From Candidatus Nomurabacteria bacterium (GTDB lineage: Bacteria; Patescibacteriota; Minisyncoccia; Phycocordibacterales; UBA9973), in contig JBPOHQ010000007.1 of the NCBI GenBank assembly GCA_052035405.1, forward strand, positions 12,292-76,291: a stretch of DNA of 64,000 nucleotides. Reading direction: 5' to 3'. Position 1 is the first letter of the stretch; every line of letters starts with the position of its first letter. A program made the translations under genes and the position numbers. The notes under the pieces were generated by a model. That model was given only the letters and a program-made list of their open reading frames with translations, made no database searches and was not told where the DNA came from. Positions 1-44,931 of this stretch are shown here, one piece after another.

Positions 1-212
1 ACAAGTATGATCATTATGGGTTAACTGATTTTGCAGGAATGAACCTTGTTCCGTTTTTAATGTCAGTCCATTATGTTCCTGAATACCAAGAATTATTAAA
101 AGAGAAAATATCCCAAACAAATTATCCTGTGAAGATATTAACTGATGAGCAAGCAATCCTTGTGAAAGGAGACAGTTTTGAATTACTTGGAGGTGAAGAA
201 GTAAAGTTATAA
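1..212 (+). CDS. 3' end of an upstream gene (partial); function unknown
   Basis: Frame stays open from the window edge to TAA at 210-212; translation ends ...TDEQAILVKGDSFELLGGEEVKL. Confidence 0.4.
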   Translation, partial: KYDHYGLTDFAGMNLVPFLMSVHYVPEYQELLKEKISQTNYPVKILTDEQAILVKGDSFELLGGEEVKL

Positions 213-230
213 AGGAATAAATCTAGCTAT

Positions 231-276
231 TTTCTTGCAATATAGCTACTCGAATATCATCCCAAGTTCGGAGCAA
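231..276 (+). repeat. Copy A of a ~46-bp direct repeat (tttcttgcaatatagctactcgaatatcatcccaagttcggagcaa); second copy at 10997-11043
   Basis: About 80 % identical to 10997-11043 with an identical 18-nt core atcccaagttcggagcaa; contains a short stem cgaaY/gttcg; followed by a T6 run. Confidence 0.7.
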
Positions 277-370
277 TTTTTTGAGCCATATTTTGTAATG
301 GTTATTTTTCATACCCTTGTAGGGATTAGAACTATTTTGTGACAGAACTTTTCTATGGTATATTTTTAGT

Positions 371-700
371 ATGCAAATTAATTTAAATGTACAGCCTAAA
401 TATTTTACAGATATTCGTGAAGGTTTGAAAATATTTGAGGGACGTCTCGCTAAAGAGAAATATAGATTACTTAATATAGGAGACACAATATTGTTTGATA
501 ATGGGGATGATACCATTGTAAAAAAGATAGACGGTATTCACATTTTTGACTCTTTTTCTAGTGGAGCAGATTTTCTAGGGGTTAAAAATATTATCCCAGG
601 GATAGAATCAGTTTCAGAGCTTGTGTCCATTTACCGTCAATTTTATTCAGAGGAAGATGAAAAAAAGTACGGTGTGGTGTTTTTAAAACTGATTGATTGA
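371..700 (+). CDS. Small cytoplasmic protein, ASCH/PUA-like domain (tentative)
   Basis: 109-aa ORF; size and sequence reminiscent of ASCH-domain proteins; followed by a terminator. Confidence 0.4.
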   Translation: MQINLNVQPKYFTDIREGLKIFEGRLAKEKYRLLNIGDTILFDNGDDTIVKKIDGIHIFDSFSSGADFLGVKNIIPGIESVSELVSIYRQFYSEEDEKKYGVVFLKLID

Positions 701-735
701 CAAAACACTAAAAACATAGTACTTTACAGAAAGAT

Positions 736-757
736 GGCCCAATGGTGGGTCTTTTTT
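736..757 (+). terminator. Rho-independent terminator (ggccca-atgg-tgggtc + T6)
   Basis: 6-bp stem, 4-nt loop, T6 tail directly after the 371-700 gene. Confidence 0.55.
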
Positions 758-782
758 CTTTCACAATTTAAATCGCATTAAA

Positions 783-1278
783 ATGGAAAATGTACATTTT
801 CGTCCATATCGAAGCGATGATTATCAAATTATCGAACCTTGGTTTGAAGCCTTGGTCAGATTTTATGATGGTCACAATGGTCAAAACAAGTTAATTGACC
901 AATTGGTAGCTGGGCTTGGAGGATGGTGACAAAAATGGTTTCTTTACCACTCGTAAAGAGCTATGGGTTGCCGAACTAAAAGGACAGGTTGCAGGTTTTT
1001 ATTGCCTCAATTACAAAAGAGGCGGTTCTGTAAAACTTGGACCCATGATTACAAATCCTAGCCTTACAGGCAAAGGTATTGGTAAAGCAATGATGTCCCA
1101 CTTACTCGAACAAGTTTCAGGCGAGAGAAAACTTTATGCAACTACCAACGAAAACAATCATGCTATTAATAGCATTTTTGACAAATTTGGTTTACAGATC
1201 TTGAATCTATGGGAAGATACTGTATTGATGTTATGTGTTTCTCAGTCTACGGACTGTAATTTTCAAGTCTTTCGCTAG
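783..1278 (+). pseudogene. GNAT-family N-acetyltransferase interrupted by a frameshift (783-929 in one frame, 916-1278 in the +1 frame)
   Basis: N-terminal MENVHFRPYRSDDYQIIEPWFE... ends at TGA 927-929; acetyl-CoA-binding part ...GKGIGKAMMSHLLEQ... continues in the next frame; the +1 frame only opens after TAG 907-909, so the shift lies in 910-929. Confidence 0.55.
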
Positions 1279-1675
1279 AGGCATCTTACGAGAAAGTTGG
1301 CCACAATACTTCGTTAGGTTCTTTCAAGCGCCACCTGTCGAAGGGATTAATTTACTACTCTTTGGTGTGTAATAAACTAATTCCCTCGAACTTCGATTGC
1401 TGTCGAAATCGCATCAAGGGGCATCCACTTTAATAGCGTCCAAGGGTGGAGGGGATGCCGCGTTTCCGCAAATGCTCTCCACTGATCCTCAGGATTCCAC
1501 AAATAAACGAGAAATTAGCTGGAAGCTAACCTTTTCCATATCATATGGCTATATTATATCAAAGTCCCAATTTCTGATTGCAAGTCTTGCACAAAGTTTA
1601 AATTTATCCAAATTCAACTAGATTTATCACCAATTTTCCTCTATAATTACCCAGTAAATTTAAACAAATTAGGAA

Positions 1676-2104
1676 ATGAGTATATTATCTGGTTTAAACA
1701 AAATAAAGAGCTACACATTCCTTTTGGGCTTGTTCAACTTGCTTTTCTTTTTCATCCCCGGAGCAAGTTATTTATTCCTTTTCCAAAACGAGCTATTTGT
1801 TAGCTTAGATTTTAACAAAATACTACTTCTTTCTCTGGCAATTAACTTTCCAGCCATACTACTGTTTACGTCAGCTCTTATATTTAATCGAAAGAAAAAA
1901 CCGAAACCAACTGAAAACCAATTCTTTAGCATTATTACTGTCTCTAATATATTGGCTGGTTTAATAATGTATATATCTATTATTTCTTCCTATTCTTTAA
2001 ACCTATCTCCTAGACATCAGTTTTACTTTTATTTCGTAATTCTTCTGACGATTTTTATCTATATCTACTGGGATCTAAGAAAGAACGGTGCATTGTTTGA
2101 ATAA
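1676..2104 (+). CDS. Polytopic membrane protein, unknown function
   Basis: 142 aa with 4-5 hydrophobic helices. Confidence 0.45.
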   Translation: MSILSGLNKIKSYTFLLGLFNLLFFFIPGASYLFLFQNELFVSLDFNKILLLSLAINFPAILLFTSALIFNRKKKPKPTENQFFSIITVSNILAGLIMYISIISSYSLNLSPRHQFYFYFVILLTIFIYIYWDLRKNGALFE

Positions 2105-2192
2105 AAAATAGTTTTTGTAGATTACCTATTGAGCAATTTTACTTAGGATTTAAGGGTATTTTTTATCCCAATCTATCATTTTCTGTGCTTTG

Positions 2193-2221
2193 TTGGCACT
2201 AAAACTTATCTAATGTATAAT
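2193..2221 (+). promoter_or_regulatory. Sigma70-like promoter: TTGGCA-17 nt-TATAAT, ~50 nt upstream of the RHS gene
   Basis: Exact -10 TATAAT at 2216-2221 and -35 TTGGCA at 2193-2198 with a 17-nt spacer. Confidence 0.45.
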
Positions 2222-2270
2222 TTATTTAGCAGTTCTTCTATCGGCAATTATTATTAATAACATACATATT

Positions 2271-5200
2271 ATGAAATCACATTTCGTCTCGGGATATATA
2301 TTAAAAAAGTTTCTCTCAGTTTTTCTTATAGTTTCCTTCTTTATGGCGCCACTAGCGCCTATTTTTGCGCAAGAGGCAACCTTGGATAATTCTGCACCTG
2401 TTAGTACAGAGTCATCATCTCCAGTGGTACTAGATATCCTTCCAAGTGTAGATACTTTGACTGTTACATCAAATGAAACAACGATAGATGCATCGCCACA
2501 GATTGATACCACACCTGTAGATACGCCTACGGATGTAATAACTGACCCAAAAGACGAAAAACCTATTGAAGAAGTACCTGTAGATGAAGTTCCAGTTGAA
2601 GAAGAACCTGAGATGATGATGTCGATGATGGGTGGCACTGGAGGATTCCTTGGAGATACTCGTGATTTACCCAATATCGGATTTCCATCAGTAGATAAAG
2701 CTTCTGGTGGATTGTCATATAGCTATCCTTTAACATTGCCTCCTGGAAGAAATGGACTAGACCCAAAGCTTGCTCTTGAATACTCTAGTCAAGAAAATGA
2801 CCAAGGTAATTTGTTTGGTTATGGTTGGAATATCAATATCCCATATATAAAAAGAATCAATAAAACAGGTATAGAAAAGCTATATACTGACAATTACTTC
2901 TACTCCTCACTCTCTGGTGAACTTGTGTTAGTCTCTGGTACTACCTATGCACCAAAAGTAGAAGACGGAAGATTTTTAACTTATACATTTGATGGTACAT
3001 ATTGGACAGTAAAGTCAAAGGATGGATCGGTATATAAGTTTGGATACAATGCTGGTGCAAGACAAAATAATTCCGGAGACACAAAGACTTTTAAATGGAT
3101 GTTAGAGGAAGAGCGCGATACGAATAATAACTATATTAAGTATGAATACTATAAAAATGGAGGCCAAATATATCCTGATACCATAAGCTACACAGGCAAT
3201 GCATCGACCGACGGTATTTTTACTGTTGTGTTCTCTAGAGCTAGTAGAAACGATGCTGTAACTCAAGATTTTGGAGTTTTTGATGTAACGACAAGCTATA
3301 GAATCAGTGAAATACAGGCAAATATTAACGGCACCTGGGCTAGAAAATATACTCTAGGATATTCAAATGGTGACAATAGCCAGAGATCGTTGTTAACTAA
3401 CATTACTGAAGCAGGACAAGATGAAAGTTCAAATACCACCACCCTTTCACCAGTAGAATTTACCTATCAAGTTGCTACAACATCGAGTGCTGACTTCGTT
3501 ACAGATTCAGCTTGGTCCACAGCTGCTTCATCGACAATAAATACAAACCCATCTTATGGAACAATTGTTGCTGATTTAAACGATGATGGTTTGCCTGATG
3601 TTATGGAATCTTGGAGAGGGGCCAATGATGTATGGTATAAAGGAACATATTTAAATGATGGTGATGGTACTTGGACCCAGGATACAAACCTAACTCCACC
3701 AATTGAATTTGCTGGTAACAGTCCATTGAATGAGTTTGGAATTAGATCAGTTGATTTAAATGCAGATGGTTTGACTGACCTTGTACAAAGTTACAGTAAT
3801 GGTCCAGGTCAAAGCAACACAATACAAAGAGTATATATTAATACTGGAACTTCCTGGTCTCTTGATACGAGTTGGCAGCCATCTTGTTTTTTTCTTGGTT
3901 GGCCGCAAGGGGATAGTGGTTGTAGGTTAATAGATATAAACGGAGATGATTTACCAGATTTCGTCAATGCTGTTGGTGATAACAATGGTAATTCACCAAT
4001 CACAACCTCAGTTTATTTAAACACTGGTAGTGGTTGGAGTAGTAGTTCTGGTTGGAGTATTCCAGTTGATTTGCGTTTCGGTGTAATGCTTGTTGATTAC
4101 AATGGAGACGGGTTGGTTGATATTTTGAAAGGATACAAAAATCCAGACGCTAATCCAGCTATTTATATACAAGAGGCGTATAAAAATAATGGGGATAAAA
4201 CTTGGTCTTCTGACAGTGCGTATACACCACCTGTATACTTTGCAGTTCAAACAAATGGTTCTTCCTTGCCAGTTGGTACAGGAATACAACTAGCCGACAT
4301 TAACGGAGATGGAATGATAGATATTTTACGAGGCAGTGAGACTACTGATGGCGCATATTTAAATAAAGGGAATGGTTGGCACTTAACTACTAACTGGGAT
4401 TTTGGACATGGATCAGTGCCAGTTACTAGTGCTTCGCCTGTTAGGTTTGGAGATTTCGATGGTGATGGAATGATAGACAGATACGAAACAAGTGGTAGTG
4501 GTGGTGCAACAATGCAGAAAAATCAAAATGTTAAAGCTGACTTGATGTCTACAGTTAAGAATCAGTACGGCGGTGTAACAACAGTTACATACAAAGGTTC
4601 ACCTAAATACACTAGTGGCGGTTCAATCTTAAATCCTGATTTACCATTTATATTAATGACGGTATATCAGACTTCTACTGATTCTGGTTTTGGAAATTCA
4701 AATATCGTAAACACATACTCCTATGAAGGGGGTGATTATTATTACAACACCATTACAGACAGAAGGTTCTCTGGGTTTAATAAAATATCGGTAAGTGATG
4801 GTACGACTAAAACCACTACTTTTTATCATCAGGGTAATGCTACAGATTCATCAAACGGAGAATACAGTGACCACTCTTCAAAAATTGGTAAAGTGTACCG
4901 AGTAGAAACAAGTGATACTTCTGGGAATGTATATAAAAAGGTTGTGAACAAATGGGATAAATATAATCAAGGCACAGGCCGAGATTTTGTTAAACCAGTT
5001 CGTTCCACAGTATTAACCTATGACGGTGATAGTGATCACAAAGATATAGCAGAGGAATATACCTATGACAATACTTACGGAAATCTAACAGACAAAATAA
5101 TGTGGGGTGAGGTTACTGGTTCCAATGATGGTTCATTCACCGATACTGGATCTGATAAATACACTGAGAGTATTTCATATACCGCTAATACCACAGACTA

Positions 5201-8200
5201 CATTGTGGGCTTACCATATCAAGATACAGTTGTTGACCAAAGTTCAAATAAAGTTCGCGAGTCAAAGACATACTATGATACTCAATCATTAGGCACAGTC
5301 ACTGATGGGAATATAACAAAAGTAGAAAGATGGAAGACGGGCAGTACCTATGTAAACACTCAAAAGGCATATAACACTACCTACGGCATCCCAACTTCTT
5401 CTACTGACGAACGAGGTAAAACTACCACTTATAGCTATGATTTATACAACCTGTATCCAGCTACAGTCACAAATCCACTGTCTCAGGCAGTAAGTTATAC
5501 TTATGACTACTCACTGGGTAAACCAAAGCAATTCACTGACCAAAACAGCTTTGTATATCAGACTGTTTACGACGGACTAGATAGAGTAAAAGAAGAAAAG
5601 GTTCCAGACTTGTCTTCACCATATTCTCCAATAACTAAAACTGCATATACCTACACCGATACTTCTGGATCTATAGCTGTACAGAAAACAGCATACCTTG
5701 ATGGTTCAAACACAGCTCTTTCATATACATACTTTGATAAACTAAATCGACCAATCCAAACTCGAGTAGAAAATGAGAGTGATTATAACGTTAAAGATTT
5801 CTTGTACAATGCAGCTGGATTACTACAAAAGGAATCCTTACCATATTCTTCTTCAGGTACTGCTATTACCACGGCTAACAGCACTGCATCACTCTATCAT
5901 AATTTCACCTATGATCCATTACAGAGAATTTCTACACAAGTAAACAATGTCGGAACAACTTCATATGCCTATGACGACTGGAAGACATCTATAACTGATC
6001 CAAATACTAAGTTAAAACACTATTACAAAGACGCATACGACAATCTAATTCGTGTTGATGAAACAAATAGTGGAAGTACATATAGTACCTATTATGAATG
6101 GAATGGTAATAAACTATTGACTAAGATTACTGATGCATTAAGCAATATAAGAAGCTTTACTTATAATGGACTTGGTCGCAGACTAACAGCGGAAGACATT
6201 CATGCTTCTGCTGATGGTACCTATGGTACTTGGACATATACTTATGATGATGCTGGTAACCTAACTCAAAGTGTGAACCCGAATAGTCAAACTGTTAACT
6301 ACACTTATAATGATATTAATCAAGTATTAACAGAGAATTATACAGGCGATACCGGAACTGAAATTACATACACATATGGAGGGTGCACCAACGGTACAGG
6401 TAAACTTTGTAGTATAAACATGCTAAATGGTGCAGATACTGATTATACATACAATTCAAACGGTGGTATTGCATCAGAGGTTAAGACAATAAGCAGCACA
6501 GGATATACCACTTCATACACCTATGATAGACAAAGTAACATTCTAGAAATTACCAATCCAGACAGCTCTAAGGTTAAATACAATTTCAATACCGCTGGAA
6601 CGATGGAAACTATCCAAAGAAAAGAGAGCGGTGATGCCAGTTATACCAATGTGATTACTGACATGGACTATGGCCCACACGGAAAGAATACTTACAGAGA
6701 ATTTCTAAATGGCATAAATACAACCAATACCTTTGATGCCACCAAGTTATACAGACTAACTAGAATAAATACAATAAACCCAAATGATACTTCCTCTGGT
6801 TCACCGACAACCACCACATTCTACGCTAATTCTTCCGGTGACGGTCATATCGAGGCTTACAATTCAAACTGGGACACTGTGCACGACAATACAGCTGGTT
6901 CTTATATATCTCGTACCGCTACAACGAACGAGGTTCAAGTACGCAGACATTCAGGTAATTATTATATTTTTAGAGAATTCTTACCATTTGATACTTCTTC
7001 TTTGCCAGACAATGCTTCTATTAGTGCTACAGATCTAAGTATATATATTACTGATAAATCTAATGTAGATAACGATGGTGATGACTTTGTTACTGTGGTT
7101 CAAACATCTCAAGCAAGCACTAGTGAATTAGATTACGAAGATTTTGACCAAGCTGGTGCAGTAAATAATCCTACCGAAGGTGTTGCTACTTCCGATAGAA
7201 AAGATATTACTTCTATCAGTAATGGCTGGCTTGCATTCCCATTAAACAGCACAGGAAGGTCTTGGATTTCAACTACTGGTTACACAAAATTAGGTCTTAG
7301 GGAGGGTCATGATGTATTAGACAATACTATAACCAACTTTGACGACGATAATGATGTAAATAGTATCAAGTTTAGATCTGCTAATTATAGCGGTACATCC
7401 TCTGACCCTAAATTAGATGTGACCTATACTATTCCTGTTGCTACCGACTTTCAAGACATTAATTACACTTATGATGCTAACGGAAATATCACCCAAATAG
7501 TTGATAGCTCAGATACTAATGCTTCTAAAACCGTTGTCTACACTTACGATGATTTAAATCGAATGCTAACCGCTACCGCTACAGGCGTGGCGGGTGGTCA
7601 AAGTACTTACACTCATACCTATACATATAACGCAACAGGTAACATAACATCGAGTCCTTTTGGAACTTATGACTATAGCAGTAGTGGTTTTGCAAATCCA
7701 CATGCAGTAACATCAATTGTAAATGCTTTGAATAATAATCCGGTGATTACCTTAACTGGTTCTGACTTGATTTATCTGAATCTGGGCGATTCGTGGACTG
7801 AACCAGGCTACAGTGCCACAGATGCAGAAGACGGTAATTTAACTTCTAGTGTCACTGTGACTGGTTCGGTGGATACAAATACATTAGGAGTCTATAAACT
7901 TATATATAATGTCACAGACTCAAGCGGTCTACCTGCAGCAGGTGTGGCAAGAACTATATCTGTTAGACAGCCTTATAACCCAAAAGTAAAAACATTGGTT
8001 GTGGCTGGTGGTGGTGCAGGAGGAGCTGGAGATGGTTATAGCGGTGGCGGTGGAGGAGGTGCTGGTGGAGTAATTGAAGATAATGCTTTTGGAGTAACAG
8101 CTCAGAATTATAGTATTACTGTTGGTGATGGCGGTAGAGTGACCTATGCAGAGAGTGGAAGTAATTCAGTCTTCTCTACATTAACTGCTGTGGGTGGTGG

Positions 8201-10232
8201 AGTAGGCGCAAGAAGTTTCTTTAATGGTACTAGTGGAGGTTCTGGCGGGGGAGGGTCCGCTACAAACAATGGAGGTACTGGTACATCTGGACAAGGTAAT
8301 AGTGGTGGAAACGGTGCTACTGGAAGTTATAAAGCTGGTGGTGGAGGAGGGGGTGCTACTGCTACCGGATCAAATGCTGGAGCATCCGATAATGGTGCAA
8401 ATGGCGGAGCGGGCATATCTAGCTCAATTACAGGAATATCTACTACTTATGCTGGTGGTGGTGCAGGAGGAGCTAAGAACAGTAACTATAACGGCGGTAC
8501 TGGTGGAACTGGCGGAGGGGGAAATGGTAGCGGAGTAAATGGATGTACCGCCGGAGCAGCAAATAAGGGCGGAGGCGGAGGCGGTGCAAGGGGCGGATCT
8601 GACCCTTGTGATGGGGGTAAGGGTGTAGTAATTATTGCTTACAAATCCGATGGCACTGATGGAGTATCATCTTCATCAACTGGTGGAACCATTACAACAT
8701 CAGGAGGATATCAAATACATCAATTCAATAGCAATGGTACTTTTGGTTCTGTTCTAAGTAATTACAATTCTCCAAGTAATAATAATCCAGTCATTACTTT
8801 GACCGGGCAGAGCGTGCTTAATGTCGCCGTCAACAGTACTTGGACCGAACCAGGCTATAGTGCCAGTGATACAGAAGACGGGAACTTGACTTCAAATGTT
8901 GTGGTGACTGGTTCGGTGGATACAGCAACCCCAGGTGTATACAACCTAGTGTACAGTGTTGTTGATTCAGGCAATGCTTCTGCTATAACAAAAGTTAGAA
9001 CTGTGTTAGTAAGTAATTCAGTTAGCACTACTAATTACTCTTACGATAACAATGGCAATATGCTTACCCAAACCAACGGTCTATCAAATACTTGGAATTA
9101 CAAAAACCAACTTACTCAGGCAGTAAAAGGAGGAGTTACTAGTACATACACCTACGATTACACAGGACAGAGAGTAAAGCTTGGAAATGGTACTACTACT
9201 ACCGTATATCCAAGTATGTATTACAGTACTGATGGAACTACAAAAACAAAGAGTGTTTATATTGGTGGAACACAAGTTGCTACTATAGAAACTGTTGGCT
9301 CTACCACAACTCCATACTATATACACACAGATCACTTAAATTCTATAAATGTAGTATCTGATAACACTGGAGCTAAGGTTGAATTACTAGATTACTATCC
9401 TTATGGAAGCACACGCATATCTTCTGGTTCATACACAAATCAAAAGCAATACATTGGGCAATACTACGATACAAACACCTCGTTAAATTATCTAAATGCA
9501 AGGTATTATCACAATACAAATGGACAATTTATATCTCAAGATCTAATGTTTTGGACATTACCCCAAGAATTACTTTTTGATCCACAACTACAAAATTCTT
9601 ACAGCTATGCAAGTAACAACCCTATAATCAATAGCGACCCGAGTGGACTTATAAGTAAGTCAGACTTTTCTCCGGGCAACATTGCAAATAGGATTAACAA
9701 CATCCTTAACTCTTATTTTGGAAAGAGTCAAAATCAAAATAGTCAAATTGTTAGCCCAATACAGACAAAACAAAATACAAATGTAAGTCAATTAACTGAT
9801 AATAAAATGGGTTCAGTTGATTATGGACAATATAATGTAACATCAACTAATCTACGCAACCGCCTGGATAAATTTGCCAATGATACCAATCAGAATATAA
9901 TTGTAACTTCAGGAGATCGCTCTTCTGAAAGAAACAAATTAGTTGGTGGCGCAAATGCAAGTAGGCACTTGAATGGTGACGCTGCAGATATTAAGGTGAA
10001 TGGTGTTCAAAATGAACAATTGTCATATATGGCAAATGCATCTGGATTATTTAATACAACTATTTATTATCCTGTAGTAGATTTACCGAAAGCACTTGCT
10101 CCTCACGTTCATGTCGACTTAAACCCCGCAAACAATAACATTTTAAGGATATATGTTCCTTATATGAAAGGTGATTCTATCGTGAATGATTATAAGCCCC
10201 TAATTAACCCCTTAATAAGGGGTAAGCAATAA
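2271..10232 (+). CDS. Sec-secreted giant polymorphic toxin (WapA-like / fused TcB-TcC-like architecture): signal peptide, acidic S/T/P-rich linker, SpvB-like domain, FG-GAP/VCBS beta-propeller repeats, RHS/YD-repeat shell, Ig-like and Gly-rich insertions, RHS core with DPxGL, C-terminal peptidase-M15 (MepK/YcbK-like) toxin domain
   Basis: 2653-aa ORF. N-terminal MKSHF...FAQE signal. SpvB-like LPNIGFPSVDKASGGLSYSYPLTLPPGRNGLDP. Repeated DxNxDGxxD motifs (DLNDDGLPDV, VDLNADGLTDL, IDINGDDLPDF, VDYNGDGLVDI, ADINGDGMIDI, GDFDGDGMIDR). More than 15 YD repeats (YTYDxxGNL...). RHS core YYIHTDHLNS...DYYPYG...ARYYHNTNGQFISQD...DPSGL. Confidence 0.9.
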   Translation: MKSHFVSGYILKKFLSVFLIVSFFMAPLAPIFAQEATLDNSAPVSTESSSPVVLDILPSVDTLTVTSNETTIDASPQIDTTPVDTPTDVITDPKDEKPIEEVPVDEVPVEEEPEMMMSMMGGTGGFLGDTRDLPNIGFPSVDKASGGLSYSYPLTLPPGRNGLDPKLALEYSSQENDQGNLFGYGWNINIPYIKRINKTGIEKLYTDNYFYSSLSGELVLVSGTTYAPKVEDGRFLTYTFDGTYWTVKSKDGSVYKFGYNAGARQNNSGDTKTFKWMLEEERDTNNNYIKYEYYKNGGQIYPDTISYTGNASTDGIFTVVFSRASRNDAVTQDFGVFDVTTSYRISEIQANINGTWARKYTLGYSNGDNSQRSLLTNITEAGQDESSNTTTLSPVEFTYQVATTSSADFVTDSAWSTAASSTINTNPSYGTIVADLNDDGLPDVMESWRGANDVWYKGTYLNDGDGTWTQDTNLTPPIEFAGNSPLNEFGIRSVDLNADGLTDLVQSYSNGPGQSNTIQRVYINTGTSWSLDTSWQPSCFFLGWPQGDSGCRLIDINGDDLPDFVNAVGDNNGNSPITTSVYLNTGSGWSSSSGWSIPVDLRFGVMLVDYNGDGLVDILKGYKNPDANPAIYIQEAYKNNGDKTWSSDSAYTPPVYFAVQTNGSSLPVGTGIQLADINGDGMIDILRGSETTDGAYLNKGNGWHLTTNWDFGHGSVPVTSASPVRFGDFDGDGMIDRYETSGSGGATMQKNQNVKADLMSTVKNQYGGVTTVTYKGSPKYTSGGSILNPDLPFILMTVYQTSTDSGFGNSNIVNTYSYEGGDYYYNTITDRRFSGFNKISVSDGTTKTTTFYHQGNATDSSNGEYSDHSSKIGKVYRVETSDTSGNVYKKVVNKWDKYNQGTGRDFVKPVRSTVLTYDGDSDHKDIAEEYTYDNTYGNLTDKIMWGEVTGSNDGSFTDTGSDKYTESISYTANTTDYIVGLPYQDTVVDQSSNKVRESKTYYDTQSLGTVTDGNITKVERWKTGSTYVNTQKAYNTTYGIPTSSTDERGKTTTYSYDLYNLYPATVTNPLSQAVSYTYDYSLGKPKQFTDQNSFVYQTVYDGLDRVKEEKVPDLSSPYSPITKTAYTYTDTSGSIAVQKTAYLDGSNTALSYTYFDKLNRPIQTRVENESDYNVKDFLYNAAGLLQKESLPYSSSGTAITTANSTASLYHNFTYDPLQRISTQVNNVGTTSYAYDDWKTSITDPNTKLKHYYKDAYDNLIRVDETNSGSTYSTYYEWNGNKLLTKITDALSNIRSFTYNGLGRRLTAEDIHASADGTYGTWTYTYDDAGNLTQSVNPNSQTVNYTYNDINQVLTENYTGDTGTEITYTYGGCTNGTGKLCSINMLNGADTDYTYNSNGGIASEVKTISSTGYTTSYTYDRQSNILEITNPDSSKVKYNFNTAGTMETIQRKESGDASYTNVITDMDYGPHGKNTYREFLNGINTTNTFDATKLYRLTRINTINPNDTSSGSPTTTTFYANSSGDGHIEAYNSNWDTVHDNTAGSYISRTATTNEVQVRRHSGNYYIFREFLPFDTSSLPDNASISATDLSIYITDKSNVDNDGDDFVTVVQTSQASTSELDYEDFDQAGAVNNPTEGVATSDRKDITSISNGWLAFPLNSTGRSWISTTGYTKLGLREGHDVLDNTITNFDDDNDVNSIKFRSANYSGTSSDPKLDVTYTIPVATDFQDINYTYDANGNITQIVDSSDTNASKTVVYTYDDLNRMLTATATGVAGGQSTYTHTYTYNATGNITSSPFGTYDYSSSGFANPHAVTSIVNALNNNPVITLTGSDLIYLNLGDSWTEPGYSATDAEDGNLTSSVTVTGSVDTNTLGVYKLIYNVTDSSGLPAAGVARTISVRQPYNPKVKTLVVAGGGAGGAGDGYSGGGGGGAGGVIEDNAFGVTAQNYSITVGDGGRVTYAESGSNSVFSTLTAVGGGVGARSFFNGTSGGSGGGGSATNNGGTGTSGQGNSGGNGATGSYKAGGGGGGATATGSNAGASDNGANGGAGISSSITGISTTYAGGGAGGAKNSNYNGGTGGTGGGGNGSGVNGCTAGAANKGGGGGGARGGSDPCDGGKGVVIIAYKSDGTDGVSSSSTGGTITTSGGYQIHQFNSNGTFGSVLSNYNSPSNNNPVITLTGQSVLNVAVNSTWTEPGYSASDTEDGNLTSNVVVTGSVDTATPGVYNLVYSVVDSGNASAITKVRTVLVSNSVSTTNYSYDNNGNMLTQTNGLSNTWNYKNQLTQAVKGGVTSTYTYDYTGQRVKLGNGTTTTVYPSMYYSTDGTTKTKSVYIGGTQVATIETVGSTTTPYYIHTDHLNSINVVSDNTGAKVELLDYYPYGSTRISSGSYTNQKQYIGQYYDTNTSLNYLNARYYHNTNGQFISQDLMFWTLPQELLFDPQLQNSYSYASNNPIINSDPSGLISKSDFSPGNIANRINNILNSYFGKSQNQNSQIVSPIQTKQNTNVSQLTDNKMGSVDYGQYNVTSTNLRNRLDKFANDTNQNIIVTSGDRSSERNKLVGGANASRHLNGDAADIKVNGVQNEQLSYMANASGLFNTTIYYPVVDLPKALAPHVHVDLNPANNNILRIYVPYMKGDSIVNDYKPLINPLIRGKQ
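2650..3130 (+). other. SpvB/TcB N-terminal-like domain of the RHS protein
   Basis: Motifs SYSYPLTLPPGRNGLDPKLALEYSS...GYGWNINIPYI. Confidence 0.6.
3540..4500 (+). other. FG-GAP/VCBS-type beta-propeller repeat region (six or more DxNxDGxxD blades)
   Basis: Calcium-binding-like loops recur every ~50-60 aa. Confidence 0.6.
5040..6560 (+). other. RHS/YD-repeat shell, main block (further YD repeats at 7450-7640 and 9030-9200)
   Basis: YxYDxxGNL/TxxxD repeats throughout. Confidence 0.8.
7731..7970 (+). other. Ig-like (DUF5011/HYR-like) domain, copy 1
   Basis: NNNPVITLTGSDLIYLNLGDSWTEPGYSATDAEDGNLTSSVTVTGSVDT...; paralogous to 8779-9012. Confidence 0.5.
7995..8650 (+). other. Gly-rich low-complexity insertion (GGxGG/GGGGGG blocks, ~215 aa) inside the RHS protein
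   Basis: Runs of GGT/GGA/GGC codons; ends ...CDGGKGVVIIAYKSDG. Confidence 0.7.
8779..9012 (+). other. Ig-like (DUF5011/HYR-like) domain, copy 2
   Basis: NNNPVITLTGQSVLNVAVNSTWTEPGYSASDTEDGNLTSNVVVTGSVDT...; about 70 % nt identity to copy 1 by eye. Confidence 0.5.
9030..9650 (+). other. RHS repeat-associated core domain ending in the DPxGL aspartyl-autoprotease motif (DPSGL at 9636-9650)
   Basis: YYIHTDHLNS, DYYPYG, LNARYYHNTNGQFISQD, DPSGL. Confidence 0.8.
9651..10229 (+). other. C-terminal toxin domain: peptidase M15A / DUF882 (MepK/YcbK-like murein peptidase) fold
   Basis: TSGDRSSERNKLVGGANASRHLNGDAADI (9909-9992) matches the SGYRSxxxNxxVGGAxxSxHxxGxAxDI signature; HVHVD (10104-10118) supplies the HxH zinc ligands. 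Confidence 0.7.
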
Positions 10233-10233
10233 T

Positions 10234-10830
10234 ATGAAAACCAAACACATAATAATTGTAATTTTATTCGTGATTATAACTTCATACTTATTACTTAATA
10301 ATAAATTTGGAAAAGTTGCGAATAGCTGGAAATTTCAAAAGGTTATTGGGCAAACAATATTCTTTTCGAATAATCAACAATTTAATATTAACTTGTATGA
10401 CCTAAAATACGTCGGGCAACTATCTTCAGGCAAAGATAATCCGTTTTTTATAGTTTCAGGTAGAACTTGTCATAATTGTGACGAGAATCTAGCTATATAT
10501 ATATATTCTCCTAAAATAGGACTTATTAAAGAAAATAACGAACCTATAAGGTATTCATACCCAGGGAAAGAATATGATTACTCAAACAATAAACTTATTT
10601 TCGAATCCAGAATGTTCTATGGCCAGTGCTTAGATAAAAACAGTAGTTCAATTATTTGGTTTCAAAAGGAACTTGGCTCAAATGAAGTTTACAAAGAAAG
10701 TGCATTTGCTTTAGAGGTTATAGGAGAAAATATAAAAGAATCAATCAAAAAAGATACTGATTTGAGTATAGAACAAATCATAAAAAATTGTAACGAATTA
10801 CCAGGTGTTGACGTTACTACTCAACCTTAA
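10234..10830 (+). CDS. Candidate cognate immunity protein (N-terminal membrane anchor, extracytoplasmic Cys-containing domain)
   Basis: Starts 2 nt after the RHS stop codon; MKTKHIIIVILFVIITSYLLL anchor; no recognisable family. Confidence 0.5.
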   Translation: MKTKHIIIVILFVIITSYLLLNNKFGKVANSWKFQKVIGQTIFFSNNQQFNINLYDLKYVGQLSSGKDNPFFIVSGRTCHNCDENLAIYIYSPKIGLIKENNEPIRYSYPGKEYDYSNNKLIFESRMFYGQCLDKNSSSIIWFQKELGSNEVYKESAFALEVIGENIKESIKKDTDLSIEQIIKNCNELPGVDVTTQP

Positions 10831-10996
10831 AGCATAAAGGCATCAGGAGCCTTTTCTGAAATAGAATTAAAAATTTTATGAAAAACTTACTTTCAAAAAT
10901 CCTAATCCTGCTCTTCCTACTTGCCCCACTTCAACCCCTCTTCGCCTCTGAATCTCAACCAGAGACCCTTGTCACATATATTTGATTTACCGTTTG

Positions 10997-11043
10997 TTTT
11001 CTTCTAATATAGTTCTTCGAACGTTATCCCAAGTTCGGAGCAA
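10997..11043 (+). repeat. Copy B of the ~46-bp direct repeat (see 231-276)
   Basis: ttttcttctaatatagttcttcgaacgttatcccaagttcggagcaa; perfect 5-bp stem cgaac/gttcg around the loop gttatcccaa. Confidence 0.7.
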
Positions 11044-11120
11044 AGAAGTTATTATTGTATTATAATAAGATTTTATATTGTGCGTGTTATATTTTTCATT
11101 GAATCACTAAAAAATAATTT

Positions 11121-11651
11121 ATGAACTACATCTATCATTGGGTTCCAAAAGATATGCAAGGAGATGTGCTTTTCCCTTTGAATGCACTTAAAAAGACGCA
11201 TCCTGATTTGTATAAGAAACAAGCAAGTAAATATGTCGGACGAGAACAAATAATGCAATACAGGCTTCCTGTGTTGAATTGTTTATGGAACGACGTATTG
11301 CATTTTTCTCCTGTTCATCCATCAGAAGTGAAACAGGCCTTGATTGAGGCGGGTAGAAAAAAGCCTTTTGATGTTGAATTTTTTGAAATAGATCCACATC
11401 TTTTAAATCCTGAAAACACAATTGTTTATTTATACAAAGACAGCAGTATAATCGATAAGACAGAGGAAAATAATTTTGTAAAGTATAATCCTGAAGATAT
11501 AGCTCAATATTCTGTATTGCCAAAGGAAACTAAGGATTATTATAAAGAAATGCTTTCTCAAGGTAAAAACCCTCTATTATTTCATCGAGTACCACACATC
11601 CTTTTCAAGGGTTCACTTAATACGTTAAAAATTAAAAGAATGAAATTCTAA
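11121..11651 (+). CDS. Hypothetical cytoplasmic protein
   Basis: 176-aa ORF, no family recognised. Confidence 0.45.
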   Translation: MNYIYHWVPKDMQGDVLFPLNALKKTHPDLYKKQASKYVGREQIMQYRLPVLNCLWNDVLHFSPVHPSEVKQALIEAGRKKPFDVEFFEIDPHLLNPENTIVYLYKDSSIIDKTEENNFVKYNPEDIAQYSVLPKETKDYYKEMLSQGKNPLLFHRVPHILFKGSLNTLKIKRMKF

Positions 11652-37300: not shown

Positions 37301-40300
37301 TGCCGGAGCCTTAACAACAACTGGAACGACATCACATTATGGTGCACAAATTACTGCAGGGGGTACTGCAGATACAAATTATGGATTATATGTTAGTAGT
37401 TCTGGAGCCACTACAAATTATGCTGCGATATTTGCATTAGGCAATGTAGGTATAGGTGATGTGGACCCGGCATCACTCTTTACAGTAGGTGCAGGGGATT
37501 TATTCCAAGTAAATAGTAGTGGTGCCATAGCTGCAGCGACAGGAGTTACTTCATCTGGTACCATTACATTCTCTGGACTTGGAGGAGGTGGATCACAGTG
37601 TGTTCTTACAGACAACTCAGGAATACTTTCTGCTGGTAGTTGTGGAGGTGGAGGAGCAACTTTGGACAGTGCTTATACAGCAGGTAATACAATAGGTACA
37701 GACAGTGGTAATAATGTAATTATAAACTTAGCCGAGGTGGCAACTCCGACAGAGTTTGTGATAAATAATCTAGATACAGCTGGAGTCAATGCAGTGCAGA
37801 TAGACAATGGTATAGCTTCAGGAACACTGACAAATGGACTTTTGTTAGAGCAGTCTGGTGCAGGCACTATGACTTCCGCTATTCAGATAACTGAGACAAC
37901 AGGCACTATCACAAATGGTATTTCTGTTACTGGAACTCTTACAAATATTTTAAATACCCCTACTCTTGATATTACAGGAGCAGGAGCGATAACAGGAGTG
38001 ACTGGTATATCAGGAGGTGATGTAGTAATAGATTTTAATGATTTTGTTGTAGACGTAGAAGGTTTTACTGTTATTGCACCAGACGCTACGGGAGATGCAT
38101 TGAGTATTATCTTTGGTGCAGCTACTGATTTGCAAGCAATTGTGATAGATGCTGCAACAAATGCGTCTACTCAGACAGAAGGGTTAATACAAATAACTTC
38201 AGATACTTCTACTGACACAGCTATTGCTGGAGTAGGACTCACTTTAGTGGCTGTTGATGATGATGCTGCAGATATACTTTATGGTCACCGTACAGATATA
38301 ACAATCCAAGAAGATACTACAGACAAGGATACAGTATATGGAAACTACGTAGGATTTACTCAAAATGATCCAAACTCAACAGGGTATGGATTTGCTGTTA
38401 TAGCAGAAGATGCTGGTACTTCACCTCTTGCTGTAGGTCTGCTTATTCAAAATCTCCAAGCCACTGATATAGACATAACAGATGGTATTTTGATACAAGC
38501 TACTACAAATGATTCTATTTTAGATGCTATAGATGTATCAGATGCAGAGATCACGAACGCTATAAACATAGGCACGAATTTACTTGTAGCATCTGGAGAC
38601 TCTATCAATGACTTCACTGGCAATGGCTTAGTTGTATCTTCAAATGCTCTTACTGTAGACACCACTCTTGGAGCTGATGGGCTTTCTGCTACGACTTCAT
38701 CTGGTTCAGGACTTGAAACATTGGCGACAGGAGTAGCATTACTCCAAGGTTGTGCACATGATGAAGTTTTGAAATGGAACGAAACTTCAGACGTTTGGGC
38801 TTGTGGGAAAGACAATGATTTAATTACTTTGTCTTGGGCTGAAACAAATTTGACTGCTTCACAAACTGCTCTACAAATGGACAGACCAAACGCTACTAAC
38901 TTAAACACAACTACCTCTGAGGCATACATGCCTTATGCTGGAAGTATCGTTGGTATAGAAGTCGGAGGTAGTGCTGCTCGTACTGCTGGTACTGCTACTT
39001 TTGAAGTATATAAAAATGGTGCTGCTACAGGATTAACTGCTGTTATAAATGGAACAAATACTCAATACGTAAGAACTACTCAAGTTCCAGGGACTGATAC
39101 TTTTGCAGCAGGAGATTATATAGATGTGAGAGAGACTACTACAGGAACCTTTGCTCCTACTACTTCTGAATACGTAGCTACTGTGTGGCTAGAGATAAAC
39201 GAAGGAGCTGACTTAGCAGAGTTATACAATATAGAAGATGTCAGTATTGAGTCAGGTGATGTTGTTGCAATACACCCATTCCTTGAAAATGGCATAATGA
39301 AAAGTAATAAAGCGTATCAGAAAGAAATTTATGGAGTAATTGCAACCAGACCGGGGGTTATTTTAGGTCAAAAAGAAATAGGAGACATAAGCATGTCTCG
39401 TGCGGTTGCTCTAGCTGGACGTGTGCCAGTCAAGGTAACTAATTCAAATGGTGTTATTAAAAAAGGTGATTATCTTACAAGTTCAGACATACCAGGAGTT
39501 GCAATGAAATTGACTAAAAATGGTATGTCTATTGGTATTGCCATGGAAGATTTTTATGGAGATGATGTTGGTAAAATAAATATGTATGTTAAAAATGGAG
39601 TAGTAAATGGTGATACAGAAAGTGTATTAGAAAATTTAGAAGGTTTGTCAGGAATAGAAACAAATAAAATAACCCTAAAGGGGCTGAATAGTATAGAACT
39701 AACATCAGAAAGTATAAGTGCACTTTCTAGTGCGATAGATTCTCTCAAATTTGAGAATTCAAAACAAGCAGATGATGTAATTATGCTTAATAACAAGAAC
39801 GAATCATTTGAAAATAAAATAATAAATATAGAGTCTGCTATGAGTTTAGGCATGTTTGAAAATAAAAATAATCTTAATTTAGAAACGTTAGTGGTGGGAG
39901 GGGAGGTACAGTTTAATGGACTAACATTCTTTAACTCAAGTACGGTGTTTAATCGAAATGTTACATTTGGTAATGTTGTAGAATTTACAACTCCACCACT
40001 TTTCAACAAAGACACAGCCGGTTTTGCGGTAATAAAAGCAGGAAGTAAAAAAGTGGAAGTAGTTTTCGAAAATCCGTATATAGCTCAGCCTGTAGTGAAT
40101 GCGTCTATTTCTTTAGAGGATTCAGTTAATCCCGCTACAGAGACTACCCCAGAAGTAGTGAATACTATGACAGACGAACAAGTTGAAGAATTTTTTAGCC
40201 AAAATATAGAGTACTTGATTACAAATAAAACTGAGAAAGGTTTTGTAATTAGAATAAATAAAGTAATTACAGAAGACGTACTATTCTCATGGTCAGCTTT

Positions 40301-43905: not shown

Positions 43906-44931
43906 TTGATTATAATGAAAAATTATTTAAGTGACAGAAAAATTTCGCTAATAACTTCTCTATTTTTTGCACTATTTATTTTATTCAGTGCTAACCAGGT
44001 GTTTGCTCTTAGCTTATCTCCTGTTAGATTTGAGTTACAAGGTGATCCCGGACAATCTGTATCAGGAGAAATAATCTTAACTAACGAAACTGACTACCCT
44101 CAGACTTTCTATTCTTCTTTCTCAAACTTTGAAGCTCAAGGTGAGTCAGGTAACCCTGCTTTTGTTGTTCCTAAAAATGATTTAGGTACATGGATATCTA
44201 CTTCAGATATTGTTAATCTAGAACCACATGTTACTAAAAATGTTCCGTTCACTATAGATATACCAAAAGATGCTGAGCCAGGAGGTCATTTTGCTGTTAT
44301 CTTTTTTGGAGATACACCCGTAAATAATACTGGTGGTGGTGCAGTATCAGTTGGATCACAAACCGGTGCACTTGTCTTACTTTCTGTTAGTGGAGATGTA
44401 AAACAAGCAGGAGGAATGACAGCTTTCAACTTAAAGAACAATAAGCATTTTTATAATACTTTACCAGTAGATTTTGAATACAAATTTAAAAACGATGGAG
44501 GTGACCGCATTAAACCAGATGGTTTAATTACAGTTAGAAATATAATTTTTTATCCAAAAGTTAAGTTAGATGCTAACCCAAGTGAAGGGAATATACTTCC
44601 TGGAAGTACTCGAAAGTTTGAGATTAGTTGGATAAATTATTCTAGACCAAAAGACTTTACTCCTTCTTCAAATGTTTTTACTAGATATATAGAAATGGTT
44701 AAATATCAATGGCAAAATTTTGCTTTTGGTCCTTACTTTGCAAAAATACATCTTTCTTATGCTGGTTTAAATTTTGGTGACGGTAGTACCTTGTTTTTCT
44801 TTGTATTCCCTTGGCAACTTCTTATATTGATAGCTTTTGTATTAGGTGGATTGTATGTAATTGGAAAGAAAGTTCTCATACGTTACAATGCCCACATTAT
44901 AGAAAAAGCTAAACAAAATATGAAGTTGTAA
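43906..44931 (+). CDS. Cell-surface protein with C-terminal transmembrane anchor, DUF916/DUF3324 (CscA-like) architecture (tentative)
   Basis: Signal peptide; LSLSPVRFEL...PKDAEPGGHFAVIFF; C-terminal helix LLILIAFVLGGLYVIG + KK. Confidence 0.4.
   Translation: MIIMKNYLSDRKISLITSLFFALFILFSANQVFALSLSPVRFELQGDPGQSVSGEIILTNETDYPQTFYSSFSNFEAQGESGNPAFVVPKNDLGTWISTSDIVNLEPHVTKNVPFTIDIPKDAEPGGHFAVIFFGDTPVNNTGGGAVSVGSQTGALVLLSVSGDVKQAGGMTAFNLKNNKHFYNTLPVDFEYKFKNDGGDRIKPDGLITVRNIIFYPKVKLDANPSEGNILPGSTRKFEISWINYSRPKDFTPSSNVFTRYIEMVKYQWQNFAFGPYFAKIHLSYAGLNFGDGSTLFFFVFPWQLLILIAFVLGGLYVIGKKVLIRYNAHIIEKAKQNMKL

Follow-up and report, generated by a model that had tools for sequence, protein, structure and literature searches.

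Direct repeats around an RHS toxin region of a Candidatus Nomurabacteria bacterium as probable att-type junctions of a gene-cassette array at tRNA-Asn

In staphylococci, composite islands of the staphylococcal cassette chromosome (SCC) lie at the 3' end of rlmH, depend on Ccr large serine recombinases (LSRs), and consist of tandem elements delimited by direct repeats of the integration site; many of their units lack a recombinase and are presumably moved in trans. The tycheposon islands of Prochlorococcus are composed of elements separated by partial copies of the island tRNA, with degenerate remnants and with LSRs in a minority of elements (10.1101/2020.12.28.424599). Herein, we analyzed a 64-kb stretch of DNA from a Candidatus Nomurabacteria bacterium (64,000 nucleotides of contig JBPOHQ010000007.1, hereafter called the window), a member of the Candidate Phyla Radiation (CPR, Patescibacteria), and focused on two direct repeats that bracket a region encoding a large RHS toxin. 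The evidence makes it quite probable that these repeats are att-type junctions in a tandem array of gene cassettes integrated at the 3' end of tRNA-Asn(GTT).

Like tycheposon and Islander-type tDNA islands, the array has a tRNA 3' end as its site and carries repeated att motifs between successive elements (10.1101/2020.12.28.424599; PMC4383910). In islands of this type, incoming elements push older ones outward, many units are devoid of an integrase, and the content differs between close strains. Unlike in tycheposons, the repeated motif of the CPR array does not appear to copy part of the host tRNA, with which it has only GGAGC in common. Its arm is a dedicated one of 45-110 nt that is nearly unchanged across CPR phyla, and most units consist of one gene, about 1 kb long, that brings its own terminator and promoter; no replication or packaging modules were seen. 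The differences from SCC are the target, which is tRNA-Asn and not rlmH, the far smaller units, the other phylum, and a recombinase link that we infer. The CPR arrays are best described as flexible islands that are anchored at a tRNA, grow by serial site-specific integration and have an integron-like density. A full-text search of the literature on CPR integrons, cassettes and tRNA islands gave no description of such arrays.

Reading of the sequence and a repeat search identified a direct repeat of 47 nt on the + strand, present as copy 1 (TTTTCTTGCAATATAGCTACTCGAATATCATCCCAAGTTCGGAGCAA) and copy 2 (TTTTCTTCTAATATAGTTCTTCGAACGTTATCCCAAGTTCGGAGCAA). The two copies are 83% identical over 47 nt, lie on the same strand at a distance of 10,767 nt, and have the exact 18-mer ATCCCAAGTTCGGAGCAA in common. 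With up to 3 mismatches allowed, this 18-mer had exactly 2 matches in the 64-kb window versus 0 in 100 dinucleotide-preserving shuffles, and a profile of the site (see below) found just copies 1 and 2 in the window (E<10). Open reading frames (ORFs) on the + strand start with ATG at 371 and 11121, that is, 95 nt after copy 1 and 78 nt after copy 2. A first-pass annotation, made from the letters alone, had reported same-orientation direct repeats of about 46 bp with an identical 18-nt core, placed about 90 nt upstream of these two genes; both statements were confirmed, and the enclosed genes (ASCH, a GNAT fragment, an RHS/SpvB protein and a downstream ORF) were as it had described them. Since ARAGORN found no tRNA in the window, the repeat copies are not tRNA genes.

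The distribution of the site family, designated T1, was determined beyond the window. Scanning of the exact 18-mer in one genome per species gave 42 loci. The 18-mer was carried by 15 CPR bins (Paceibacterota, Nomurabacteria, Saccharibacteria and Minisyncoccia) and by one contig binned as Cytophagales; in all 16, the match was intergenic with TTCGAACATC directly before it. Matches in about 20 Poseidoniales archaea and 6 scattered ones had coding-like flanks without an upstream TTCGAAC block and were set aside as chance sharing. In the marine Poseidoniales (L003, L007-L009, L011-L014 and others; L numbers denote loci), the 18-mer lies in a coding-like block that is near-identical across about 20 genomes, an apparent coincidence. 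A degenerate T1 pattern matched at least 120 metagenome contigs, and the counts given hereafter for these loci hold among the matches listed. A 50-nt profile, built from the genome-bin copies, found 167 sites in 115 metagenome loci. T1 recurs once per intergenic gap and on one strand, for example with 7 sites in 5 kb of L002 and likewise of L034; at multi-site loci, all sites were on one strand in 38 of 38, with a median site spacing of 1032 bp. Across 206 distinct copies, conservation was 80-99% from TTCGAAC to GGAGC and fell to the background level 2-3 nt further on, a profile that is partly inflated because the pattern used for collection lies inside the site. However, 57 copies without a match to this pattern have the same conserved block. 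The degenerate pattern had 0 matches in IMG/VR viral contigs, and blastn of copy 1 with the modules that follow it (B and C, see below) against phage and plasmid collections gave no match.

A short repeat in AT-rich intergenic DNA might be taken for a dispersed repeat of the repetitive extragenic palindromic (REP) or miniature inverted-repeat transposable element (MITE) type, or for chance similarity. We regard this as practically negligible, given the absence of shuffle matches, the presence of just 2 copies in 64 kb, both in the array, the single orientation in 38 of 38 loci, the conservation across phyla, and the lack of terminal inverted repeats or target duplications. The dozens of dispersed copies by which the first-pass annotation would have recognized a REP-like element were not observed; the copies are confined to one-strand arrays.

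The nature of the repeats was examined in relatives of the window. A lookup with the ASCH protein (371-700) collected 6 contigs that are 98.5-100% identical to the window. One of them, L044, is 100% identical to window positions 1-2344 and reaches further upstream, so that it would be continuous with the window. Its order is tRNA 3' end (GGTTCGATCCCTACCTCCCGAGCC), GATase, T2, Ham1, T1, NUDIX and peptidase S51, T1 (copy 1 of the window) and ASCH with the genes that follow; T2 is a second junction type, described below. Judged from this alignment, the window appears to hold the last two junctions of an array in the order tRNA-Asn, GATase, Ham1, NUDIX-S51, ASCH to RHS-immunity and core genes, with the tRNA about 2.5 kb upstream (in L044). 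In L043, the order is GATase, T2, ASCH with an intact 447-aa GNAT fusion, T2, and then a 176-aa gene, HhH-GPD, MsrA, MscL and further genes; the Ham1, NUDIX, S51 and RHS genes are absent. In L046, a histidine-phosphatase-like gene is followed by T2, GATase, T2 and ASCH. The homology with L043, L045, L046, L047 and L048 begins at window position 270, and that with L043 resumes at 11037 (98.9% over 8 kb), where L043 has a T2 left arm. Altogether, five independent comparisons break at the core GGAGC. Three are around the window, namely T2-ASCH versus T1-ASCH, T2-176-aa gene versus T1-176-aa gene, and tRNA-GATase versus T2-GATase, and two unrelated pairs, L104/L163 and L024/L168, break there likewise. 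The overlap at the break is just GGAGC in L043 versus L044 and GAGCC in tRNA-GATase versus T2-GATase.

These alignments show that near-identical strains have gained, lost and re-ordered cassettes and that the breakpoints coincide exactly with the core. The left approximately 40 nt of a site moves with the upstream cassette, and the B module, the C module and the promoter move with the downstream gene. The stretch common to T1, T2 and the tRNA is only about 5 nt long; as this is too little for homologous recombination, the exchange is considered site-specific. Copy 1 joins the NUDIX/S51 cassette to the ASCH to RHS cargo, and its crossover would lie between GG and AG, at 271/272. Copy 2 is the last junction of the array and borders the core chromosome, because the DNA after 11043 is common with L043 and no T1 or T2 lies further downstream (none in the window by profile search); conserved chromosomal genes begin at 11121. 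The first-pass annotation had suggested that the repeats could be att-like scars of an integrated island and that an empty site in relatives would carry a single copy. The sites are indeed att-like in kind, as the flanking genes change in relatives and the homology breaks at GGAGC, but they are not private to the toxin island; the comparison with relatives likewise revealed content that varies at the copies, but through cassette exchange and not through one island leaving one scar.

The arrays are anchored at tRNA-Asn. ARAGORN identified tRNA-Asn(GTT) genes in 23 loci, co-oriented with and upstream of every site in 23 of 23, whereas only 9 other tRNAs were found in the loci. All 23 tRNA-Asn genes end in GGAGC, or in CGAGC in one subgroup. 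It follows from this ending that the site core corresponds to the last three bases of the acceptor stem (G70, G71, A72), the discriminator G73 and C74, the first C of CCA. The match of the core with the tRNA end extends to GGAGC(C/A)(A), and one T1 copy carries ATCCCTACCCCGGAGC. In several loci, the B and C modules also stand directly after the tRNA-Asn gene, and the other side of the tRNA is occupied by housekeeping genes (ABC-F, fmt, def and HisRS). T1 was also considered as a degenerate 3' half of tRNA-Asn, and this was rejected as the local alignment was not significant (p about 0.14). An alternative cassette start was observed in L051, L061, L118, L150 and L160 (first ~95 nt after tRNA-Asn), L024 (~1700-1800) and L104 (729-820): it has a terminator hairpin and, after this, an inverted pseudo-tRNA-Asn 3' end split by a hairpin (GCTCCGTG-hairpin-GGTAGGGAGCGAA).

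A junction would accordingly comprise three parts: a conserved left arm, T1 or T2, at the 3' end of the upstream cassette; the shared core GGAGC, the last bases of tRNA-Asn, where strand exchange would occur; and the start of the next cassette, usually with a terminator-like hairpin and T-run, a GTTCGAAC box and a -10 promoter. With the conserved AGC on the right-hand side of this point, the tRNA end (A72-G73-C74) would be restored whichever cassette lands there. The T1 arm is about 45 nt long with an invariant block of 23 nt (TTCGAACATCnTCCCAAGTTCGG), and it usually sits past the terminator hairpin of the preceding gene and ahead of the next promoter. A hairpin with a T-run (module B) occurs within 60 nt downstream of GGAGC(A/C)A in 145 of 206 copies, compared with 66±6 in shuffles, and its stem sequence varies from copy to copy. 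Module C, with the family consensus ...TAGTAGAAGTTCGAACC, lies just upstream of the -10 box of the cassette gene in about a fifth of the copies; a GTTCGAAC box with at most 1 mismatch was found within 75 nt of 46 of the 206 sites. In the window, the ASCH start codon follows the -10 box by 7 nt, so the mRNA of this cassette may have little or no leader. Cassette genes often begin 6-7 nt past a (TG-)TATAAT-like box, as at 359-373 of the window, at ~850-865 and ~1545-1560 of L044, and in many other cassettes, which suggests leaderless or near-leaderless mRNAs. Such a leaderless spacing (-10 box, 5-8 nt, ATG) was only weakly enriched within 75 nt of the sites (49 versus 40±4 in shuffles) and is therefore anecdotal.

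The conserved length of T2 (...GAGTTCTGAACTCGTCCACnAGnGGGAGC) is about 110 nt, and within it two direct GAGTTCTGAA repeats are separated by about 80 nt. In many other loci, T2 shares its array and its strand with T1. Copies of T2 were seen in L044 (674-784), L016 (1450-1560 and 2211-2320) and L043 (684-737 and 2770-2823), with 82% identity between unrelated Paceibacteria genomes. Several known elements were sought in T1 and rejected. A sigma-70 promoter inside T1 on either strand was unfit in hexamer spacing by eye, with only a weak 9/12 match at 10986-11013, and a sigma-54 or extracytoplasmic function (ECF) promoter, a DnaA box and a dif/Xer site showed weak partial resemblances only.

The repeats had also been proposed to form a stem and to act as a structured regulatory or terminator motif. 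The stem TTCGAAC/GTTCGGA can be drawn, with -6.2 kcal/mol (z -0.95) for copy 1 and -9.1 kcal/mol (z -2.7) for copy 2, but neither covariation nor excess pairing was detected: the 206 copies contain 0 compensatory double changes in the stem, and 1356 paired cells compared with a shuffle mean of 1357±1.4. No Rfam family was obtained for the whole window at the gathering threshold, and an E-value threshold applied to both copies, one T2 site and the non-coding patch (1150-1700) gave no match, with only noise at the copies. Terminator calls were absent within 150-420 and 10830-11160, and no T-run follows copy 2. What is conserved is the sequence and not the structure, and the RNA or terminator reading is unsupported.

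A broader version of this idea is that no dedicated recombination is involved: a cis element (promoter or UP element, terminator-insulator or small RNA) would be reused ahead of each accessory gene, and the content would differ through homologous recombination between copies. In favour of this idea, the site precedes genes by about 80-95 nt, many copies have a -10-like AATA/TATAAT stretch before TTCGAAC, 70% of the sites are followed by a hairpin and T-run, and copy 2 folds better than shuffles. Nevertheless, we consider it very unlikely, since the left arms of T1, T2 and the tRNA have only GGAGC in common, too little for RecA-type recombination, the conservation stops abruptly at the AGC that completes the tRNA, and anchoring at tRNA-Asn holds in all 23 loci. 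The lack of covariation and of an Rfam match, and the usual position of the site between the upstream terminator and the next promoter, argue in the same direction.

The arrays resemble integrons in their one-gene co-oriented cassettes, the conserved site with which each cassette ends on its 3' side, the shuffling between strains, the density, and the similar accessory content (GNAT, Fic, NUDIX, ASCH and GrpB). In a classical integron, the repeats would be attC sites, folded as single strands and recombined by the tyrosine integrase IntI. Several features set the CPR arrays apart. They have no IntI and no attC palindrome: the R''/L''...L'/R' architecture and the L boxes are missing, and the sole inverted repeat is 7 nt long (TTCGAAC/GTTCGGA) with a 10-nt loop and 0 compensatory changes in 206 copies. 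The crossover lies in GGAGC and not in a GTTRRRY box (G/TT of R') at the 3' end of a palindrome. The downstream hairpin and the C box stay with the next cassette, and the cassettes have their own promoter and terminator. Moreover, insertion is at a tRNA 3' end, the array head being tRNA-Asn beside housekeeping genes, and Phage_integrase is not recurrent. A classical integron is thus highly improbable. A long attC-like hairpin with A and C as its ends was likewise rejected, as just TTCGAAC/GTTCGAA is complementary and the crossover is not at C.

If the exchange is site-specific, it would be catalyzed in trans by a site-specific recombinase, for which an LSR, the only kind of recombinase that recurs at the arrays, is the most likely candidate. 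When 904 ORFs from all loci were clustered, the most recurrent family was an LSR with Resolvase, Recombinase and Zn_ribbon_recom domains. It occurs in about 6-7 loci and adjoins the core in three of them. In L129, the LSR gene lies directly 3' of tRNA-Asn and heads a 9.7-kb element (2143-11479) that ends in T2 and T1 sites followed by B and C; the element carries a type III restriction-modification pair (ResIII helicase and N6_N4 methylase) and is a defence island on the same docking site. In L096, the LSR adjoins a T1 site that is quasi-palindromic about GG/AG, with TCCCA at positions 8-12 on both sides, and in L057 it adjoins a partial tRNA-Asn. A relative of the LSR in L016 adjoins tRNA-Ala.

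In this model, T1 and T2 would be half-sites of the attP type, and their attB-type counterpart would be the tRNA-Asn 3' end. With the centre set at GG/AG, TTCGA occupies half-site positions 19-23 in T1 and 14-18 in the tRNA, and TTC occupies 21-23 in T2. In serine integrases, the motif for the zinc-ribbon domain is at 16-24 in attP and 5 bp further inward in attB (PMC3783163). The distal TTCGA likewise stands 5 bp closer to the centre in the tRNA than in T1, which fits this rule as a geometric match only. Further likenesses to serine-integrase att sites are the conserved half-site of 23-24 nt, with the T1 invariant block of 23 nt corresponding to about one LSR half-site, and the predicted central dinucleotide GA, which is non-palindromic. 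In contrast to those sites, only the left half is conserved and the right halves are heterogeneous. The CPR junctions are also hybrid (attR-like), and canonical integrases do not recombine such sites without a directionality factor.

A number of observations weigh against the proposed array and its recombinase, in addition to the partly inflated conservation profile. No recombinase was found to be encoded in the window, and tblastn of six array-associated LSRs against the 64 kb gave nothing. In most loci no recombinase adjoins the tRNA, nor is there an LSR in most cassettes; only three of about six LSRs adjoin the core (those of L129, L096 and L057), and the array LSRs are only 21-45% identical to one another. 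Canonical LSRs recombine attP with attB only and not hybrid sites, and this rule alone fails to explain arrays whose internal junctions are all of the P-core-B' type. T2, conserved over about 110 nt, far exceeds an LSR half-site, and neither excision products nor circular cassettes were seen. Beyond TTCGA and CGGAGC, T1 was not significantly similar to the tRNA-Asn 3' half (p about 0.14). Sequence identity is the sole basis for joining L044 to the window, and the L043 homology ends at window position 1198, away from any site, so not all variation is site-specific. Considering both sides, we hold an LSR acting in trans as a tentative mechanism reached by reasoning, somewhat short of an even case.

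A tyrosine recombinase in trans, either a tRNA-targeting integrase of the lambda/P4 type with arm-type sites or the host Xer as in integrative mobile elements exploiting Xer (IMEX-like), is the other candidate for the catalyst. The shared core of 5-7 nt has the size of a tyrosine-recombinase overlap region, and the two GAGTTCTGAA repeats of T2 and the two TTCGAAC boxes of T1 with B and C, about 90 nt apart, are both arm-type-like. In addition, tRNA 3' ends are classical targets of tyrosine integrases (PMC4383910), and one Phage_integrase gene is present in L096. This was the one tyrosine recombinase identified: the class was not recurrent in either of two ORF sets (115 and 144 ORFs, <2 matches in each) or in about 0.7 Mb of array-flanking DNA, where LSRs are recurrent, and a crude regex screen for tyrosine and small serine recombinases gave one doubtful match. 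The right side of the core is unconserved, leaving no two-armed core site, and the 5-bp motif shift fits the LSR rule. A tyrosine recombinase is consequently unlikely.

The coordinates of the junctions and of the cargo between them are collected in Table 1.

Table 1. Junction sites, modules and cargo genes in the window.
Feature	Position	Strand	Description
T1 junction copy 1	230-276	+	Left arm 230-269, goes with the upstream NUDIX/peptidase-S51 cassette; core GGAGC 270-274
B module	284-309	+	Weak AT-rich hairpin, 284-289 pairs with 298-303, T-run 305-309; terminator-like; 5' end of the ASCH cassette
C module	310-332	+	Degenerate, CATACCCTTGTAGGGATTAGAAC (alignment)
Sigma-70-like promoter of the ASCH cassette	337-364	+	TTGTGA, 16 nt, TG-TATATT (consensus scan only)
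Cargo	277-10996	+	Between copies 1 and 2
ASCH	371-700	+	First cargo gene
GNAT, frameshifted and truncated	783/916-1278	+	Cargo
Non-coding patch	1279-1675		Cargo
Hydrophobic ORF, 142 aa	1676-2104	+	Cargo
RHS/SpvB toxin, 2653 aa, peptidase M15 end	2271-10232	+	Cargo
Putative immunity ORF, 198 aa	10234-10830	+	Cargo
Small ORF, 35 aa, signal-peptide-like (MKNLLSKILILLFLLAPLQPLFASESQPETLVTYI)	10878-10985	+	Between the putative immunity gene and copy 2
T1 junction copy 2	10997-11043	+	Left arm 10997-11036; core GGAGC 11037-11041; without B or C module

Compared with the intact 447-aa ORF of L043 (1245-2588), the GNAT gene of the window (783-1278) is damaged twice, by a one-base indel near 930 and by a loss of homology mid-gene after 1198. 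The end of the L043 homology at 1198, inside GNAT and away from any site, suggests that ASCH-GNAT became joined by a deletion to a unit bearing the RHS gene, and the 10.7-kb segment probably represents at least two cassettes fused by deletion inside GNAT. The GC-richer patch that follows the truncated GNAT (1199-1675) has no homolog in L043 and no Rfam match at E<=1. Across the loci, the array cargo is of an accessory type, with NUDIX, Fic, GNAT, NYN, zeta-like kinases, GrpB, PLD and restriction-modification genes. The RHS toxin-immunity pair of the window is in this light swappable cargo at the array end and not a fixed chromosomal feature.

Other changes of the cargo were observed in the relatives. 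In L045 (805-813) and L046 (1849-1857), two independent assemblies, 7.3 kb corresponding to window positions 947-8214 are deleted between 9-bp direct repeats GTTTCTTTA (938-946 and 8215-8223); the deletion joins the 5' part of GNAT to the C-terminal third of RHS in a 723-aa ORF and keeps the 198-aa ORF. An IS30-like element (HTH_38 and rve transposase, 337 aa) is inserted into the ASCH-GNAT spacer at window positions 799-801 in L047 (754-1835) and L048, with an apparent 3-bp TTC target duplication, and related transposases occur in the arrays L083 and L064. Glycine-rich coding repeats (CTGGTGGTGGTGCAGGAGGAGCTGGA-like) are present at 8005-8477 in the RHS gene and at 37633-37658 and 44330-44355 in two other large ORFs.

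With genomes of about 1 Mb, CPR bacteria are for the most part uncultured, and little is known of how they exchange genes. The searchable site TTCGAACATCnTCCCAAGTTCGGAGC, together with T2, marks a flexible gene pool by tRNA-Asn in many lineages, with toxins, Fic, GNAT, NUDIX and restriction-modification genes. It would make the CPR mobilome directly accessible and allow cassettes to be delimited even when metagenomes are fragmented, and candidate pairs of att site and integrase would help to build genetic tools for organisms that at present have almost none. We put forward, as a possibility that the present evidence leaves somewhat short of an even chance, an integron-like cassette platform that spans phyla of the CPR, in which self-contained single-gene units (terminator, promoter, ORF and an arm of 45-110 nt) dock at the tRNA-Asn 3' end, LSRs act in trans through GG/AG, and the tRNA end is always rebuilt. 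If this is true, the platform would be a main route of gene flux in the reduced genomes of the CPR.

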